Source: Promethearchaeota archaeon
GTDB taxonomy: Archaea; Asgardarchaeota; Lokiarchaeia; Sigyniarchaeales; SOKP01
DNA length: 64,000 nt
Assembly (NCBI GenBank): GCA_030599585.1
Contig: JAUVNS010000001.1
Location: 288,001-352,000, forward strand
Direction: 5' to 3'
Both the position numbers and the translations under genes were made by a program. Under the pieces are notes generated by a model. It did no database searches. It was not told where the DNA came from and was given only the letters and a program-made list of their open reading frames with translations. Below are positions 51,579-58,910 of this stretch, one piece after another (position 1 is the stretch's first letter; the number at the start of each line of letters is the position of its first letter).

Positions 51579-51932
51579 TTAAGCGTTTGAAATTGAAATT
51601 AGGTTTCTTTTAAGAAGAGATAAAGACGCTTTCCCATCTAAACCTGCTAAAGCGATTAAAATCCCATTATCAGAGCTAACAATTACTGCGTATCCGTCTT
51701 CTAATTCTATAGTTGCTGTTTTAATGCCTCCCTTACCTGTGGTTTCCCCCAAAGCATTGACATTTTTTATAAGTGTAGCACATGCTTTTGCGATTCCATT
51801 GTGATCCATATCCGTAATAGTTTGTCCTACGATTACTTTTCCCTCCAGATCAGAAGCTATTAAACCCTCTGTTTCAGGCACGACATCAAACAATTCTGCT
51901 AATTTTTTTTCAATAACTTCCTTATCTACCAT
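51579..51932 (-). CDS. Roadblock/LC7 (MglB-like) domain protein
   Basis: GLIASDLEGKVI...ATIELEDGYAVI Roadblock pattern, 117 aa. Confidence 0.8.
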   Translation of the reverse strand: MVDKEVIEKKLAELFDVVPETEGLIASDLEGKVIVGQTITDMDHNGIAKACATLIKNVNALGETTGKGGIKTATIELEDGYAVIVSSDNGILIALAGLDGKASLSLLKRNLISISNA

Positions 51933-52142: not shown

Positions 52143-54053
52143 TTAAGCTTCTCTCGGTCCTAAAAACAGATCTACGATTGAAAGCCATTTTTTTTTGGTA
52201 AGGGGATCGTCTATGCTTTCATTTACCATATCTTTCCCTTTATTGAGATTTTCAACTCCTAACTCGAGATTTCCAAGTGTTGTATAGCAAATACCTAATT
52301 TGATGTAAGTTTGGTAAATATACCAATCGTGACTGCCTAAAACCATAGCCTTTACGAATTTTTTAGCCGCTTCCTTATATTCTTCGAAATACATTAAAAT
52401 TTCACCGTAAGTATCATAATAAATTCCTGTCTCAGGTTCAATTTCTACGAGTTTCTGAATTATTTTTATAGCTTCTTCTTTTCTATCTAAAAATTGTAGC
52501 CAATACGCTTTATAATTAAGAAGATCGTGATCTTTTGGATATTTTTGAAGTAAATAGTTAATTATCTCTAACCCGCTTTCAATTTTCTTCATTTTTTTAA
52601 GGACAGAAGCTTTTTTAATTTTGATGTCCTTTTCATTTTCTGGGAAAACTTCTAGAAGATCATCTAATAATAATAAGGATTCGCTGTATTGGTTGAAGTA
52701 AATCAAAATTCTAATTTTTGAGTAGTGTAAATTAATGTTCATTGGATCTGATTCAAGTTCTTTTTCAATTTCTTTAACCTTTTCTTTGTATTGAAGCTCT
52801 AATTTATCAGAACCTTTAATTAGAAGTATATTTGACATATCTTGCCAAATTATTCCTTCTAATTTGTCATAAGACTCCTTTAATTCCTTTTTAGACTCAA
52901 CTTTATACGCTAAATATTTAATATATTCTGGTAGAAACTCTCTTAATGACGCGTTTAATTCTTTAGTAAATAAGAATTCATTACTCCTGTTTACGATATC
53001 ATTTACAATGGATTTCATATCTATAATAGGCATAGTTGGCGTTGGTTTTGAAAAAAGTTTATTCAAATAAGAATTTTTAGCGATTTTATTCTCGGTAATT
53101 ATTCTAAGCATTTTTTCTAGTGTTCTGTCTGATTGAAAGTAGTATTGTTCACCTGAAGGTTGCCTTAACTTAAAAAATCTTAATGGATATATTTTACCCC
53201 CTGAAATCTCATCAATATAATAATCAAGTGTAGTTTTTTTTATTTTATAAAATTTTGAGAAATCTTCAGAGGAAATAAAGTTTGGATAATGATCCGGATG
53301 ATTAATTGAAAGAAATAGTAATATCTTATGAAAAATCTCCACATCTTTTAATAGCGGCTTAACTTTTTCATAATCTAATCTTAGTATATTGTTAAGAAAC
53401 CTAAATTGTATATCCTCATCTTTGATATTATATTTTTCAAAAAATTGAAGGGTTTTTTTTGTGATATCTTCGATCCTTTTACCCTCCTCCTCTAAGATAG
53501 TTTGTCGATCTAAATTGTAATTCTGAAGCATCCTTGAATATTCTGATTTACCTGCTCGCGTAATTACATATTTTCCATCCTCTTTTATTATAAAAGCTTT
53601 TTCGACTAATAGACTCAAATTCTTTGACAATGAAGATTGGTTTATGGATAAAGGATCTTCAAGGAAGTCAGACCTTTTGCAAAAATTATTGTTGTAAACC
53701 ATCCAAAGAATCCAATGAGCGTAAATTCTTCCACTTTTTAATATTATTTTAGGAGGATAATTTAGGTTACGCAACAACTTCTTAGCACTTGAAAGCTCAT
53801 AGAATTCTTTTTTTCCCTTTGATGTAATTCTGTAATGCCCTCTAGTATATTTTTCTACATAACCCTTGCGTTTTAGCGCTTCTAAATGTCTAGATAAAGT
53901 ACCTGGAGGAATTTCAAGTGGTTCTTGACAAAAATCTGCCCATTTACATATCTCATTATTATTCAACATCCAGAGAATTATATGGTCATAATTCGGTTTA
54001 TTCCATTTAGAGGGGCTATGGATCTTATCTGGAGGATAATTAATGCTTCCCAT
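52143..54053 (-). CDS. Tandem winged-helix + C-terminal TPR protein (putative transcription regulator)
   Basis: Two copies of NYPP...Y.H.ILWM..NN..C...DF...PL.I....LS..L..L..K......Y.IT..GK; TPR consensus in the C-terminal third. Confidence 0.8.
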   Translation of the reverse strand: MGSINYPPDKIHSPSKWNKPNYDHIILWMLNNNEICKWADFCQEPLEIPPGTLSRHLEALKRKGYVEKYTRGHYRITSKGKKEFYELSSAKKLLRNLNYPPKIILKSGRIYAHWILWMVYNNNFCKRSDFLEDPLSINQSSLSKNLSLLVEKAFIIKEDGKYVITRAGKSEYSRMLQNYNLDRQTILEEEGKRIEDITKKTLQFFEKYNIKDEDIQFRFLNNILRLDYEKVKPLLKDVEIFHKILLFLSINHPDHYPNFISSEDFSKFYKIKKTTLDYYIDEISGGKIYPLRFFKLRQPSGEQYYFQSDRTLEKMLRIITENKIAKNSYLNKLFSKPTPTMPIIDMKSIVNDIVNRSNEFLFTKELNASLREFLPEYIKYLAYKVESKKELKESYDKLEGIIWQDMSNILLIKGSDKLELQYKEKVKEIEKELESDPMNINLHYSKIRILIYFNQYSESLLLLDDLLEVFPENEKDIKIKKASVLKKMKKIESGLEIINYLLQKYPKDHDLLNYKAYWLQFLDRKEEAIKIIQKLVEIEPETGIYYDTYGEILMYFEEYKEAAKKFVKAMVLGSHDWYIYQTYIKLGICYTTLGNLELGVENLNKGKDMVNESIDDPLTKKKWLSIVDLFLGPREA

Positions 54054-54130
54054 AATTTGAGAGAAATAAATCTTGTTTTTCTGAATTATAGATCAGAATC
54101 TATTCTATTTATATTTATTTCATGAAACTT

Positions 54131-54225
54131 TCATAAAAACTCGAAACTATCGCGAAACTATCGATAACTCAATTATAAATGCAACAATGTCTCAACATTT
54201 AATTAATCATCATAAAGATGATAAA
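54131..54225 (+). promoter_or_regulatory. Promoter copy 1: tandem 11-bp direct repeat, TATA box and downstream inverted repeat
   Basis: CGAAACTATCG x2 (54142-54163), TTATAAAT (54173-54180), ATCATC-5-GATGAT (54206-54222); near-duplicated at 56822-56913. Confidence 0.75.
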
Positions 54226-54260
54226 AACGAAATTTAACAAAAAAGAGTTGATCTAAAAAA

Positions 54261-54656
54261 ATGACTGAAATTAAAAAAATTACTAAGATTGCCTTGCTTT
54301 GGTACGGTGTAGCAGGTATACTTTTTGCGTTTTTTTACTTGGTACTTACCGATTTATATGTAGCTATGACACAATGGCCATTTAACGACCCTGTTATGTT
54401 TTGGAGTTTAGGAGGGACCTTGTTAGTTATTGGGATAGCTTCACTAATGGCATTTTTTAAAAAAGAATGGGAGGAAATAAAGCTATTTTTCCTGTTTTCG
54501 ATGATGTGGTTACTATATTTTATAATCATGAATATCATTACTATAGTACTATTAAGTTTACCCGAGATGGCCCTAATGAGTCAGATAACTAATATAATGC
54601 TCTTAACATTCAATATAGTCCTAGGTACAATCTGCTGGATAAAACAAAAAAGTTAA
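54261..54656 (+). CDS. Hypothetical 4-TM membrane protein
   Basis: Four hydrophobic segments, WPF.DP loop. Confidence 0.75.
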   Translation: MTEIKKITKIALLWYGVAGILFAFFYLVLTDLYVAMTQWPFNDPVMFWSLGGTLLVIGIASLMAFFKKEWEEIKLFFLFSMMWLLYFIIMNIITIVLLSLPEMALMSQITNIMLLTFNIVLGTICWIKQKS

Positions 54657-54797
54657 ATCAATAGAAATATCAAAATCTTAAATTTTTTTTTCTTTTTTAG
54701 TATGTAATTAACTAGTTCTTATAGTTCATCAAACACTAGATTTAAAATTACGATTAGCTTAACTTATCTTAAGGTTATATCCAAATTTGTCATAATT

Positions 54798-56747
54798 ATG
54801 TCTAATCCAAAACTAAACAAATTAACAAGAGCAGAAGAACTTTTTGATGATGGTAAGCTTGACGAAGCTCTTGAACTCTTAAATGATAAAAGCCAATTTG
54901 AAGGGCTCAATTTTGAAAAAAAAAACCATTTTCAATCTCTTAAAGGCTTAATATTACTATATCAGAATAAAAACCTTGAACTTATTGAGTTAGGAGAACT
55001 CATGTTTAAAGAGGGCCAAGCTCTTAAAGAAAATCTCCATAGCTCTGACGGATTATTTTTTAATGCCATGGGATTAGATCTAGAAAAAAGATTTGAGGAA
55101 GCGTTTAATAGGATTGGACAAGCTGAGACTTTATTAGGACTCATTTCTAATGTACCAAAAAAAGTGATAAATCGAAGAGGATTTCGCTTAAATGTACTAA
55201 AAACAATGATTTATATACATATGGGTAAGATAGACATAGCAGAGAAGTGTTTAAAAGAACTCTTACACTCCCAAGATGACCCTAATATTTCATGGGAGCT
55301 AATTTGGGCATACACAAATATGGCATATATTAAATTGATAATGAGAGGAAGGTCTGATCTTGCTTTGGAATACGCTGAGAAAGCGATGAGTCTTGCGAAG
55401 AAAATAAAATTTAACCACTACTGGTTAGGTTATTGTCACATTGGTATGGGGTCTTTACACATGCAAAGATGCGAGTATGAAATGAGTTTTGAGCATCATA
55501 TGAAGAGTTTAGCGTATTTTAAACGGATAAATAACATTTGGTTTATTGCGCATTTATATAACAACCTGGGTAATTTACATTGCATTAAAGGAGAATGTGA
55601 CATCGCTTTGAAATATTTGGAGGAAGCTTTAATACTTTGGGAGCCATATTCGCTAATGAAGGATGCTTGTCTTGATTCTATGATATGGGTATCTCTTGAA
55701 AATGGAGATATTGAACGTGCTCAAAGATATTTTCAACAATTGGAAAATTTGTACAATGAAAATAAAAGTTCTCCTCTCAAAGTGCTTTACAAATTCAATA
55801 AAGCTAGAATATTAAAAAGAAGTTCTCGAATCCGAGATAAAGCTAAAGCTGAAGAATTATTGAAACAGGTCATCGAAAATGAATATCATTTTTTTGAAAT
55901 AAAAATTGCTGCCCATGTCAATCTTTGCGACTTACTACTAGCGGAGTTTCGTGTAAATAATAATAGTGAGGTCCTTGAAGAAGTAAATAGATATATTGAC
56001 AATTTATTATCCATTGCTGAAGCGTCTGGCTCGTACAATATTTTTTGTAATACTTTCATTCTTCAAGCAAAATTAGCCTTAATAAACTTTGATATGAAAG
56101 CAGCTCGTCGATTTTTAACCCAAGCTCAAAAAATTGCAGAATCTCACGGAATTAAGCGATTAGCAATGAAAGTTTCTCAAGAACACGATGAATTAATTAA
56201 ACAATCGAAACTGTGGGAGAATTTAAACGAATCAGAATTGCCTTTATCTGAACGCTGGAAGCTCGCAGGTTTGAATGAACAAATAGAGAATATGGTCAGA
56301 AAACGAATGATTGCAGTTCCTGAGCTTTCTAATGAGGAGCCCGTGCTACTTTTAATTGTATCCGAAGGAGGTGTTCCTTTTTTTTCACATTCTTTTGTAG
56401 AAGATAAATCGTTTAGATCTCACCTCTTTGGGGGTTTTCTAAGCACAATCGATTATTTTATTAAAGAAACATTTTCTGAAGGATTAGACAGAGCAGTTTT
56501 CGGTGAACATACTCTTCTTATGAAATCTGTTCCGCCTTTCTTTATTTCCTATATTTTTAAAGGCGATTCTTATTATGCTCTTCAAAAAGTAGATTATTTC
56601 AAAGATCATTTACAAAAAGAAGAAGATATTTGGCAAAATTTGCTTAAAAATTTTCAAAAAAACACTGCTGTTCAGTTAAAAGATTACCCCTTACTTGAAT
56701 CTCTAATAACAGAGACATTTATCGCCAAAAGGATTGTATTTGGATAA
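54798..56747 (+). CDS. TPR protein with C-terminal longin-like domain
   Basis: TPR repeats (NNLGNLH...G...AL.YLEEAL); C-terminal LLIVSEGGVPFFSHSF...LFGGFLSTIDYF longin pattern. Confidence 0.8.
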   Translation: MSNPKLNKLTRAEELFDDGKLDEALELLNDKSQFEGLNFEKKNHFQSLKGLILLYQNKNLELIELGELMFKEGQALKENLHSSDGLFFNAMGLDLEKRFEEAFNRIGQAETLLGLISNVPKKVINRRGFRLNVLKTMIYIHMGKIDIAEKCLKELLHSQDDPNISWELIWAYTNMAYIKLIMRGRSDLALEYAEKAMSLAKKIKFNHYWLGYCHIGMGSLHMQRCEYEMSFEHHMKSLAYFKRINNIWFIAHLYNNLGNLHCIKGECDIALKYLEEALILWEPYSLMKDACLDSMIWVSLENGDIERAQRYFQQLENLYNENKSSPLKVLYKFNKARILKRSSRIRDKAKAEELLKQVIENEYHFFEIKIAAHVNLCDLLLAEFRVNNNSEVLEEVNRYIDNLLSIAEASGSYNIFCNTFILQAKLALINFDMKAARRFLTQAQKIAESHGIKRLAMKVSQEHDELIKQSKLWENLNESELPLSERWKLAGLNEQIENMVRKRMIAVPELSNEEPVLLLIVSEGGVPFFSHSFVEDKSFRSHLFGGFLSTIDYFIKETFSEGLDRAVFGEHTLLMKSVPPFFISYIFKGDSYYALQKVDYFKDHLQKEEDIWQNLLKNFQKNTAVQLKDYPLLESLITETFIAKRIVFG

Positions 56748-56821
56748 TTTTAACTTTGAGTTTTCTGCTTTTAAATTGATGTTGGAAAATTTAATTTAAC
56801 TCTATACATTTTTCAAAAATT

Positions 56822-56913
56822 CCATAAAAAATCGAAACTATCGTAAAACTATCGATTGCTCAATTATAAATGCAACTATATCTCATCAATCTCTGATCAT
56901 CATAGATGATAAA
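56822..56913 (+). promoter_or_regulatory. Promoter copy 2: tandem 11-bp direct repeat, TATA box and downstream inverted repeat
   Basis: CGAAACTATCG-TAAAACTATCG (56833-56854), TTATAAAT (56864-56871), ATCATC-3-GATGAT (56896-56910). Confidence 0.75.
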
Positions 56914-56950
56914 TTTAAAGATAAACCTAAACAAAGAGGTATAATAAAAA

Positions 56951-57583
56951 ATGAAAAAAACAAAAATTTTTCTACTAGCGACTTTGGGAATATGCATGTT
57001 AACCTTTATACCAGCAGCCCTAGGAGCGGCAGAGAATAGACCAATTTCGGCCTTTACTGCCACTAACCCTAATGTAGCAGCATGGTCGGATCCTGAGTCT
57101 GGGTTGACCGTTTTTCCTCATGGATTTTATTTGTTTGGTTTGGATGGCTTAGAAAGCATCGCAGAATGTGATCATCATGGTTCTGTACTCGTGAAAGACT
57201 TGAAAGATGGACGTATTTTGTATAAAGTGAATTTACATGTAGAGGGTGCATCAATGTTTGTTGCCAATGCCACCACAGTGATATTTGCAGGAGAAATGGA
57301 CTATAGTTTCCAAGTAACCATGATTGTTTATGAAGGAGAACTCAGCGATCCTATTCCATATCTTCTTGCCATATGGTTCCCAGCAGCACTAGGAATAGAG
57401 CCTATAGGCGAAGGTACGTTTTCACATATAACGGGGAGTGGTACTGGGACATTTGTTGATGATTATGCAGCAATTAGACTAGGTTTTGCTCCTGGAGCCA
57501 TTGCGAAGCTAAAGATCAATCAAGTTGGTATTTTAAGGTCAGAGCGAGAAATGTGGCCCGTAGAATTAATATTTATACACTAA
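56951..57583 (+). CDS. Secreted hypothetical beta-rich protein
   Basis: Signal peptide MKKTKIFLLATLGICML...ALGA; GAGGT SD-like sequence upstream. Confidence 0.75.
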   Translation: MKKTKIFLLATLGICMLTFIPAALGAAENRPISAFTATNPNVAAWSDPESGLTVFPHGFYLFGLDGLESIAECDHHGSVLVKDLKDGRILYKVNLHVEGASMFVANATTVIFAGEMDYSFQVTMIVYEGELSDPIPYLLAIWFPAALGIEPIGEGTFSHITGSGTGTFVDDYAAIRLGFAPGAIAKLKINQVGILRSEREMWPVELIFIH

Positions 57584-57638: not shown

Positions 57639-57706
57639 AAATATAGAAAAGGGAGGAACTAGAGATAGGGAGGGAATTCCTCCATTCTATATTTCTTTTT
57701 TTTTTT
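57639..57706 (+). terminator. Stem-loop followed by a long T-tract
   Basis: AAATATAGAA..GGAGGAA / TTCCTCC.TTCTATATTT, then a T run. Confidence 0.6.
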
Positions 57707-57921
57707 AACTTATAATAGCTTTCGTAAAAATAATCATTTATTAATGGAAAACAGAGTGATCATGATGTTTGGCACATATTTAAAAAATTCCATCAACTGA
57801 AGAAAGACTTTAACATCTAAGAATTGCTGTTAAAATATTCATTTTGCTAAACTTTTATAATATACAATATCTAATTCTACATTATAGTAAAAATATAATA
57901 CGAGAAGCACTAAATTATTTA

Positions 57922-58476
57922 ATGACGAATCCTCAAGAATTTGGATTTAAGATTTCCATAATAGGAGATGGAGGGGTAGGAAAGACATCCTTAATTAAAA
58001 AATTCACTAAAGGCACTTTCGAAAAAGATTACAACCAGACTATCGGTGCCCAATTTACAATATATGATATGGAAATTGATGGGGATTTAATTAATTTAAT
58101 ATTCTGGGATATTGCTGGACAAGATGATTTTAAATTTTTGCATCCTTTATTTTACAGGGAAAGTAGGGGGTGTATAATTGTTTTTAGCCTTGAAGAAAAT
58201 GATTTAGGTGAAGAAAGTTTTAACCATATAGAAAATTGGCATAACGAACTCAAGAAGTATTGTAGCGATATTCCCGTGGTTCTATTTGCTAATAAAGTTG
58301 ATCTAATAGAGGAAGCCAATTTAATCAAAACGAACATTCAAGAGGTTATAAAGGAAAGAAATTTTCTCGGATATTTCCTAACATCAGCAAAAATGGGAAA
58401 AGGAGTTCATGAGGCTTTCAAAGCGATCATTGAAAAACTATATTATAAGTATAAAGATTTATCTTCCGAATTATAA
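57922..58476 (+). CDS. Rab/Ras-like small GTPase
   Basis: G1 GDGGVGKTS, G2 QTIG, G3 WDIAGQ, G4 NKVD, G5 TSAK; start MTNPQEF; no CAAX. Confidence 0.93.
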   Translation: MTNPQEFGFKISIIGDGGVGKTSLIKKFTKGTFEKDYNQTIGAQFTIYDMEIDGDLINLIFWDIAGQDDFKFLHPLFYRESRGCIIVFSLEENDLGEESFNHIENWHNELKKYCSDIPVVLFANKVDLIEEANLIKTNIQEVIKERNFLGYFLTSAKMGKGVHEAFKAIIEKLYYKYKDLSSEL

Positions 58477-58625: not shown

Positions 58626-58910
58626 TTGATCAATCGACAAGAAGTCAAGAACATCATACGTCGCTTCGAAGAACGCGAGGGAATAAGGGGTGTGATCATC
58701 TGCGATTCAAGTGGTTTACCGATAGATTCTAACATGGATATCGAAATAAGTGAAGAGATATCCGCTTACGTTACATCCTTAATTGGAAAGGGAAAACAAG
58801 TCGTGGAAGCTTTAAAGGAAGGAGGTTTGAAGTTTATACGCCTGGAGACAAATAAAGGAGAGACTATGATTGCTCTTGAAGAATCGCTTATTTTAATTAT
58901 CCTTAAGTAG
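58626..58910 (+). CDS. Roadblock/LC7 domain protein
   Basis: GIRGVIICDSSGLPIDS...FIRLETNKGE, resembling dynein light chain Roadblock. Confidence 0.9.
   Translation: MINRQEVKNIIRRFEEREGIRGVIICDSSGLPIDSNMDIEISEEISAYVTSLIGKGKQVVEALKEGGLKFIRLETNKGETMIALEESLILIILK

Follow-up and report, generated by a model that had tools for sequence, protein, structure and literature searches.

The window, i.e. the whole stretch of DNA that was analysed (64,000 nucleotides, G000:C20:288001-352000), belongs to the Lokiarchaeial genome G000, which consists of 52 contigs (4.85 Mb, 32.6% GC). It contains the gene of a putative regulator with two winged helix-turn-helix (wHTH) domains and a tetratricopeptide repeat (TPR) domain, and two genes for a membrane protein and a secreted protein, each of which is preceded by a copy of one module of about 120 bp. 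This module is very probably a functional cis-regulatory cassette that is maintained by selection. G-numbers denote genomes, L-numbers fetched loci, and W, X, Y, Z and V clades of the regulator. The genes and module copies under consideration are as follows:

52143..54053, minus strand: regulator gene (636 aa, W clade) with wHTH domains at residues ~4-92 and ~97-176, a helical linker and a C-terminal TPR domain
54110..54229, plus strand: module copy 1 (covariance-model match of 119.6 bits)
54261..54656, plus strand: target family A, a multi-pass membrane protein of 131 aa (no Pfam match above cut-off)
56801..56917, plus strand: module copy 2 (93.9 bits)
56951..57583, plus strand: target family C, a secreted protein of 210 aa (signal peptide read from the sequence; no Pfam match)

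The initial annotation had described near-identical DNA upstream of the two non-homologous genes at 54261 and 56951, repeats with a period of 11 bp ending 9 bp before a TATA box in both copies, and a divergent gene for a tandem-wHTH protein with TPRs beside copy 1. These observations were confirmed. The repeat AAACTATCG occurs as an exact match at 54144-54152, 54155-54163, 56835-56843 and 56846-56854, and each pair, with its period of 11 bp, ends 9 bp before TTATAAA (54173-54179 and 56864-56870). When the window was scanned with the 20-nt tandem pattern, allowing up to three mismatches, just these two sites were found (0.15 expected). Over 63 bp, the two upstream regions share 89% identity (E 6.5e-13 in a blastn-short search of the 4.85-Mb genome), the DNA flanking them is unrelated between the copies, and the two downstream proteins show no detectable mutual similarity. 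The regions 54110-54229 and 56801-56917 are thus copies of one module.

The order of the elements within the module was obtained by aligning the three copies present in G000 and then 31 copies from relatives. In copy 1 and the leader following it, these elements are:

54104..54120, minus strand: putative TATA box of the regulator gene itself (TCTATTTATATTTATTT on the plus strand; module positions 1-11), assigned by its position
54124..54134, plus strand: box 0, GAAACTTTCAT (family consensus GAACTTCCAT), 19 bp upstream of box 1
54143..54163, plus strand: boxes 1 and 2, GAAACTATCG CG AAACTATCG, with a period of 11 bp and ending 9 bp before the TATA box
54168..54180, plus strand: CTCAA and TATA box of the target promoter, CTCAATTATAAAT (1.65 bits, the most conserved block of the module)
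54190..54196, plus strand: TCTCAAC element (1.49 bits), at about -13 to -7 from the predicted transcription start
54206..54222, plus strand: stem-loop ATCATC-ATAAA-GATGAT, beginning 1-5 nt after the predicted transcription start
54244..54252, plus strand: conserved sequence AGAGTTGAT before the start codon, recurring as AAGAGTTGA in most copies and putatively acting as a Shine-Dalgarno sequence

Copy 2 is built in the same order, with box 0 at 56814-56825, boxes 1 and 2 at 56834-56854, the TATA box at 56864-56871, TCTCATC at 56881-56887 and a stem-loop with a 3-nt loop at 56896-56910. Across the family, boxes 1 and 2 have the form GRAACTATC, lie 11 bp apart and follow box 0 at 19 bp; the interval of 9 bp between the end of box 2 and TTATAAA is the same in the three copies of G000 and in the relatives. 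The mean information content of box 0 is 1.47 bits versus 0.87 bits in the flanking spacers, and this box is kept in the unlinked copies. The sequence TATATCTATTT, in turn, is kept in copies linked to a regulator gene and degraded in the unlinked copies 2 and 3; it probably represents, on the opposite strand, the TATA box of the regulator gene. In the alignment, the target TATA box is contained in the block GCTCAATTATAAA, the TCTCAA element is flanked by variable stretches on both sides, and the A-rich leader ends in AAGAGTTGAT, followed by the start codon. Weak matches of the module model on the reverse strand (18-31 bits) overlap the regulator's own promoter at L110, L124, L123, L111 and other loci, and the divergent regulator promoter may be a degenerate mirror of the module.

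The third copy is located on contig C17 (G000:C17:20550-20669). It had been missed in the initial annotation, as had box 0, the conserved stem-loop and the wide conservation of the module in related genomes. Its leader matches that of copy 1 almost up to the start codon. Of the 98-codon open reading frame (ORF) behind it (L004:1628-1924), only the first ~82 residues match the secreted proteins of family B (~220 aa), and the target of copy 3 is a gene remnant, namely an 82-codon N-terminal piece of a family-B gene. An intact family-B paralogue (G000:C26:125467-126162) has the distal part of the leader in common with copy 3 (AAAACC...GAGGTGAAAATGGTG) and possesses neither boxes nor TATA box nor stem, a pattern suggestive of a past recombination within the leader. 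Further module copies were not detected in G000, either with nhmmer (E <= 10) or with the covariance model. Two tandem matches with two mismatches each (C1:20593 and C26:116927) were rejected as modules, being matched by neither method. The boxes are also absent from the four paralogues of target genes in G000, C21:246344, C26:262138, C26:125467 and C50:112207.

The module was then sought in 100 relatives, all from the same Lokiarchaeial family as G000 (101 genomes including G000). A 31-position pattern with up to three mismatches matched 23 of the relatives, and the reversed pattern, serving as control, gave no match in the relatives and two in G000. With the covariance model built from the alignment, 112 copies were detected in 45 of the 101 genomes. 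The positive relatives are distributed over five genera (17/31, 23/30, 2/7, 1/10 and 1/5), and a single genome can hold up to nine copies. The information content, determined from 33 distinct high-scoring copies, is 1.4-1.8 bits per position for boxes, TATA box, TCTCAA and stem arms, compared with 0.85-0.9 bits for spacers and loop. The copies have therefore diverged unevenly. The contamination listed for the G000 assembly (8.9%) leaves this finding unaffected, because close counterparts of the regulator paralogues and of each of the three module copies exist within the same genus. The initial annotation had also considered that the motif might be confined to this locus and result from a neutral duplication with uniform divergence. 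Such a recent duplication, or a chance resemblance limited to the window, is a practically negligible explanation: it accounts for the initial two-copy observation and nothing beyond it, and it is refuted by the 112 copies in 45 genomes, the uneven conservation and the lack of control matches in the relatives.

The target TATA box occupies module positions 64-71 and the stem begins at position 97. The usual distance between TATA box and transcription start in archaea places the start at about module positions 92-96, corresponding to ~54200-54205 in copy 1, i.e. a few bases before the stem. For this reason, the stem is read as a stem-loop at the 5' end of the mRNA. In the alignment, 94.6% of the cells are paired, and five of the six pairs have changed on both sides; such changes were counted in 17 cells, versus 2.0 +/- 1.4 in shuffled alignments (0 of 500 shuffles reached 17). 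Furthermore, G-U and U-G pairs are tolerated (8 at pair 1, 4 at pair 3, others elsewhere) and the loop is variable. No covariance model of Rfam 15 matched at E <= 1 within 54000-57100. Sediment-metagenome DNA contigs were the sole listed records containing the locus, with no RNA run among them. The palindrome ATCATC-N5-GATGAT might instead be a DNA operator of a dimeric repressor, as it is a perfect inverted repeat with a variable spacer at the predicted transcription start and so has the typical look of a dimer operator. The wobble pairs and the 17 cells changed on both sides suit pairing in RNA better than identical DNA half-sites. The operator is therefore the less likely reading, yet it keeps appreciable weight, because the stem alignment was fitted to the covariance model and is biased towards structure.

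The regulator contains two wHTH domains of the ArsR/PadR/MarR type and is a putative sequence-specific DNA-binding protein. Domain 1 exceeds the Pfam cut-offs of HTH_45 (PF14947; 32.3 versus 25.5), HTH_34 (PF13601; 30.3 versus 27) and HTH_5 (PF01022; 23.6 versus 22), and domain 2 stays just below that of HVO_A0261_N (33.1 versus 35). The two domains are homologous (41% identity; internal repeat E 3e-14). The AlphaFold2 (AF2) model of the N-terminus, with a mean predicted local distance difference test score (pLDDT) of 83 (88-97 within the domains), shows two units of three helices and a wing (H22-32, H38-42, H50-62, E66-76; H111-121, H128-131, H139-151, E155-164). Foldseek searches with single domains matched AspA (5k5q, template modelling (TM) score 0.72) and 3b73, the whole model had no match at E <= 1e-3, and a PDB sequence search with the N-terminal domain yielded marginal matches alone, to AspA and PH1061. 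At residues ~450-570, matches to TPR_2, TPR_14 and ANAPC3-type repeats are each below the cut-off and mutually consistent. The recognition helices of the two domains differ (TLSRHLEALKRK versus SLSKNLSLLVEK).

More than 1136 homologues of the regulator are present in the databases, all of them named 'hypothetical' or 'TPR repeat protein', and full-text literature searches revealed no description of this family or of a Lokiarchaeial promoter module. Homologues of the N-terminal 230 aa were found in 73 of the 101 family genomes, and a single genome may contain as many as ten. At class level, the regulator is almost restricted to this one taxonomic family: it occurs in 97 of 126 genomes there, in one genome of a second family and in 0 of 23 genomes of five others.

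The tallies of regulator and module were cross-tabulated, and the covariance model was then run over 100 fetched regulator loci. In about 62 of these 100 loci, the first position of the module lies 55-60 bp from the ATG of the regulator gene in divergent orientation. All 44 module-positive relatives possess the regulator, and none of the 28 regulator-negative genomes possesses the module; no P-value is attached to this co-occurrence, since related genomes are non-independent samples. The association of the module with wHTH-TPR genes, for which the initial annotation had proposed to scan related genomes, was hence found. In a further comparison, a tree of the regulator N-terminal domains was set beside the upstream DNA:

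Clade W (that of the window), at least 71% identity to the window protein: boxes GAACTATC twice
Clade X, mostly 62-67% identity: boxes GGAATTTTC / GGAATTRYC
Clade Y, ~59-63% identity: box GGAACTACC
Clades Z and V, 54-65% identity (N-terminal 230 aa): inverted GAACTTC repeats, no stem-loop

The sequence and arrangement of the boxes vary with the regulator clade, and the distance between box and TATA box is constant. Two paralogues in G000 illustrate this: upstream of C21:115873, direct repeats of GACTCC/GACTTC stand 11 bp apart before CTATATATG, which fits the clade pattern, and upstream of C22:129910, GAAGTTC is found twice together with an inverted GAACTTC at the same place. The recognition helix of wHTH-1 likewise varies by clade (TLSRHLe.LKRK, TlSRHfTKLIlK, TLSKYls.LKgr and others), and that of wHTH-2 begins with the nearly invariant INQSSLSKN. 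The parallel between boxes and recognition helices is only suggestive, because linked DNA and gene share descent. At Z-clade loci such as L089, L096, L099 and L100, the palindromic operator is followed by no ORF of at least 25 aa.

Independent evidence is provided by the footprint-like conservation and by W-type boxes at promoters away from the regulator gene. Besides copies 2 and 3 (the latter on C17), such unlinked boxes are present in G071, G091 and G054, among others. They were found only in genomes with a W-clade regulator, with three exceptions: in G080 a regulator of 67% identity lies 517 bp away, in G086 the module is located at a contig end, so that the regulator gene may be cut off, and in G078 no W-clade regulator was found.

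The remaining genes of the gene cluster in the window are:

51579..51932, minus strand: Roadblock/LC7 gene (Pfam Robl_LC7, E 4.7e-8), downstream of the regulator gene and co-directional with it
54798..56747, plus strand: TPR-longin gene (Pfam TPR_MalT), with MalT-like TPRs and a C-terminal domain of longin/roadblock fold
57922..58476, plus strand: Rab-like small GTPase, 184 aa (Pfam Ras, E 9.5e-43)
58626..58910, plus strand: second Roadblock/LC7 gene (Pfam Robl_LC7, E 5.6e-14)

In 10 of 12 W-clade loci, the order is regulator, divergent module-target units, one or more TPR-longin genes and the Rab-like GTPase. The clusters thus contain TPR-longin genes, as the initial annotation had expected. 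Its further proposal of one paired TPR gene per target applies to whole clusters and not to every single target, as no TPR gene is adjacent to copy 3. The label 'longin' for the TPR neighbour was borne out at the level of the fold, although the C-terminal domain has no Pfam match: its 169 aa are modelled as beta-beta-alpha-beta-beta-beta-alpha (AF2 pLDDT 79, predicted TM score 0.69), and Foldseek returned AP2 sigma, Mon1-Ccz1, TRAPP and LAMTOR (E 2e-4 to 1e-3, TM 0.5-0.6). For the GTPase, the ORF list gives a TTG start at 57844 (210 aa) and the gene call of the window an ATG at 57922; most homologues have 184 aa. A TATA-like sequence, TTTTATAATATA, is present at 57853-57864 ahead of the GTPase.

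Genes for envelope or secreted proteins had been suggested as the targets, and membrane and secreted families do recur behind the modules. These are family A (~131-aa membrane protein, in at least 13 loci), family B (~220-aa secreted), family C (210-260-aa secreted with an RPIxDW motif; L024, L029, L142, L149, L150 and L152), family D (secreted with a PPFIWEY motif), secreted SBBP beta-propeller proteins and proteins with a Kre9/KNH Ig-like domain. Neither Pfam nor the protein atlas yielded anything usable on the function of families A, B and C. Orthologous regulators face different target families, and the cassettes also stand in tandem arrays of three or four module-gene units ~650 bp apart (G099:C55:77848-79970; G091:C1:3206358-3210880), in which family A and C genes alternate and which in one case were duplicated as a block. 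Because the targets are interchangeable and the cassettes occur in tandem, the module also marks the boundaries of shuffled gene cassettes. In the window, the family A gene is probably terminated by the oligo-T run at 54683-54698, and the family C gene by a hairpin and T-run at 57655-57707. Co-transcription of the TPR-longin and GTPase genes from the module was rejected, considering these oligo-T runs and the TATA-like sequence that each of the two genes possesses; both are probably transcribed from promoters of their own.

The module is best explained as a conserved promoter-plus-leader cassette; its three GAAC-type boxes lie between the target TATA box and the putative, divergent TATA box of the regulator gene. 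Boxes 0-2 would form the operator of the divergently encoded tandem-wHTH/TPR protein. It is probable that this adjacent protein binds the boxes, considering the constraint on the module, its constant divergent position, the box variants of the clades, the unlinked copies, the co-occurrence in genomes and the DNA-binding fold of the protein. The regulator would then control its own promoter and every promoter bearing a cassette, which in G000 would be those of the membrane-protein gene at 54261, the secreted-protein gene at 56951 and the gene remnant on C17. Since the boxes lie upstream of the B recognition element (BRE) and the TATA box, activation seems the more likely mode of action on the targets; given binding, the chances that the regulator activates them are roughly even. 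Autoregulation is suggested by box 0, as it abuts the regulator's own TATA box. The transcripts would begin a few bases before the stem-loop, which probably adds a second, post-transcriptional layer, for instance by affecting mRNA stability or as a binding site. Signals are likely to be received through the TPR domain, for which the GTP-bound Rab-like GTPase of the cluster would be the best candidate ligand.

The initial annotation had further proposed that a single chain reads both repeats with its two domains. This is doubtful, because identical repeats are confronted with differing helices, a third box is present, and sister clades have inverted repeats. Two protomers, each contributing the same domain, are at least as likely.

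Several observations weigh against the regulator as the reader of the boxes. Three boxes are available for two domains, and identical repeats misfit two different recognition helices. The half-site AAACTATCG is not enriched in the promoters of G000, where its 61 exact copies lie mostly within coding sequence, and the regulon in this genome would therefore comprise three promoters at most. As linked boxes and regulator share descent, boxes specific to a clade would be expected without any interaction. A further variant, TTCCAT-N9-GGATGTTCCATGGAATTATCGG, occurs inside W-clade clusters; for this reason a strict rule of one box type per regulator clade was dropped. Finally, the whole 120 bp are homologous between the copies, so that copy-and-paste adds to their similarity.

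It is conceivable that the promoter is genuinely regulated while its boxes are read by a TBP/TFB variant or another transcription factor; the wHTH-TPR gene would then be no more than a conserved neighbour with its own promoter in the same intergenic region. The GGATGTTCCATGGAATTATCGG variant, which matches none of the linked operators, fits this explanation, as does the shared descent, which alone can account for the clade-specific linked boxes. In addition, copy 3 lies directly downstream of the gene of a different wHTH protein (L004:441-1313 = G000:C17:19524-20396; a winged-helix protein with HFX_2341_N and DUF6293_C, the type of Csa3/CARF-like regulators). This neighbour, however, is found at one locus only, the divergent layout of 55-60 bp holds across clades that are 57-83% identical and have boxes differing from clade to clade, and the module was not detected in any of the 28 regulator-negative genomes. 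Another factor as the reader thus appears rather improbable. Even less probable is the assumption that the similarity is mainly due to copying at a recombination-prone cassette boundary, with boxes that have no operator role beyond that of an ordinary promoter. The homology over all ~120-150 bp, including the leader and the Shine-Dalgarno region, is in line with such copying, and so are the interchangeable downstream genes of orthologous loci, the tandem arrays, and copy 3, which drives the 82-codon remnant while the intact paralogue at C26:125467 shares the distal leader only. Yet the boxes, the TATA box and the stem are kept while the spacers and the loop vary, and the module persists across five genera with compensatory changes in its stem. 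Moreover, shuffling and regulation are compatible with each other. Binding of the boxes by the wHTH-TPR protein is therefore the preferred explanation.

A complex of regulator residues 180-636 and the 184-aa GTPase was modelled with GTP and Mg included. Its score was 0.62, versus 0.00 for the best of three controls. In a calibration without ligands, 58 of 80 solved complexes attained this mark, as did 2 of 110 mismatched pairs. The runs shared at least 53% of the contacts, with a pLDDT of the partner of at least 85. In the predicted interface, TPR residues 421-629 of the regulator contact switch I (37-44) and switch II (67-76) of the GTPase, which is syntenic with the regulator in most W-clade loci. 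The model supports docking of the Rab-like GTPase on the TPR domain via its switch regions; on the other side, the score may partly reflect likeness to solved complexes of Ras and effectors. It is possible, albeit somewhat doubtful, that the GTP-bound GTPase directly gates the regulator and thus sets the transcription of the cassettes, with their changeable set of surface and secreted proteins, and that TPR-longin and Roadblock proteins act as partners of the type of guanine nucleotide exchange factors (GEF) and GTPase-activating proteins (GAP). If true, this would represent a complete signalling path from GTPase to gene, built from 'eukaryote-signature' parts in a prokaryote.

Several known systems resemble parts of this locus. 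Like the RRNPP regulators of Bacillota (PlcR, Rgg, NprR and AimR), the regulator combines an N-terminal DNA-binding domain and a C-terminal TPR sensor domain in one chain, its gene is often divergent from the target or signal gene, and many paralogues exist, each with its own operator. It is not a member of this group, because its DNA-binding domain belongs to another superfamily (a tandem ArsR/PadR-type winged helix and not an XRE HTH) and there is no sequence relationship (no Pfam match). Further differences are the archaeal TATA/BRE promoters, the exported partner proteins of 130-260 aa and the predicted TPR ligand, which is a GTPase and not a peptide. A gene for a small secreted peptide was not found beside the regulator in the W and X clades, where the divergent partner is the 131-aa membrane or the ~220-aa secreted protein. 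SarS of Staphylococcus aureus (PDB 1p4x), a two-domain homologue of SarA, also carries two homologous winged-helix domains per chain and ranked second in the Foldseek search with the N-terminal model, as a weak match (E 4e-3, TM 0.27). In contrast to the regulator, SarS is devoid of TPRs and its domains mimic a symmetric dimer; sequence similarity is absent (no PDB sequence match).

The likeness to the archaeal activators Ptr2 of Methanocaldococcus and TFB-RF1 of Pyrococcus is one of position, as their sites are located immediately upstream of the core promoter. These sites are in helical phase and sometimes paired. Unlike the cassette regulator, both proteins belong to other folds (Lrp/AsnC) and have been demonstrated to activate, and neither TPRs nor a conserved leader hairpin are present. 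In Myxococcus xanthus, the Ras-like GTPase MglA, the Roadblock GAP MglB and the TPR effector SgmX determine the polarity of motility. At the present locus, too, a Ras-superfamily GTPase is encoded beside Roadblock genes, and the model places a TPR protein at its switch regions; unlike SgmX, the putative effector here carries DNA-binding domains, its output would be transcription, and its binding is modelled. The C-terminus of the TPR-longin protein, which adjoins the Rab-like GTPase, has the same fold as the Rab GEF platforms Mon1-Ccz1 and TRAPP and the roadblock proteins of Ragulator. Unlike in Mon1-Ccz1 and TRAPP, the longin domain is fused to a MalT-like TPR array, and a GEF role is putative.

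This study newly describes how the cassette is built and how often it occurs, the 5' stem-loop with its covariation, the boxes that differ between clades, the conserved order of the cluster and an independent prediction of GTPase docking in the W clade. To our knowledge, almost nothing has been described on gene regulation in Asgard archaea or on the roles of their Ras/Rab-like GTPases, longin and Roadblock proteins. The locus offers a defined cis-element, a candidate cognate factor from a large, functionally unnamed family and a predicted contact between GTPase and regulator, and each of them is accessible to experiments with recombinant proteins and short DNA probes that require no culture of the organism. 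Should this connection be confirmed, a role in the transcriptional control of envelope proteins could be assigned to one clade of Asgard GTPases, and the paralogues would form a series for comparing changes in the recognition helix directly with those in the operator. In addition, the conserved 5'-terminal stem-loop suggests a control step that acts through the leader of archaeal mRNAs.

A large paralogous cluster is present in G000 at C21:103000-120000. Its two regulator genes, 103031-104911 and 115873-117783, each face a TPR-longin gene in convergent orientation and enclose three further genes of this kind; the regulator gene at 103031 is divergent from a gene for a Rab-like GTPase.

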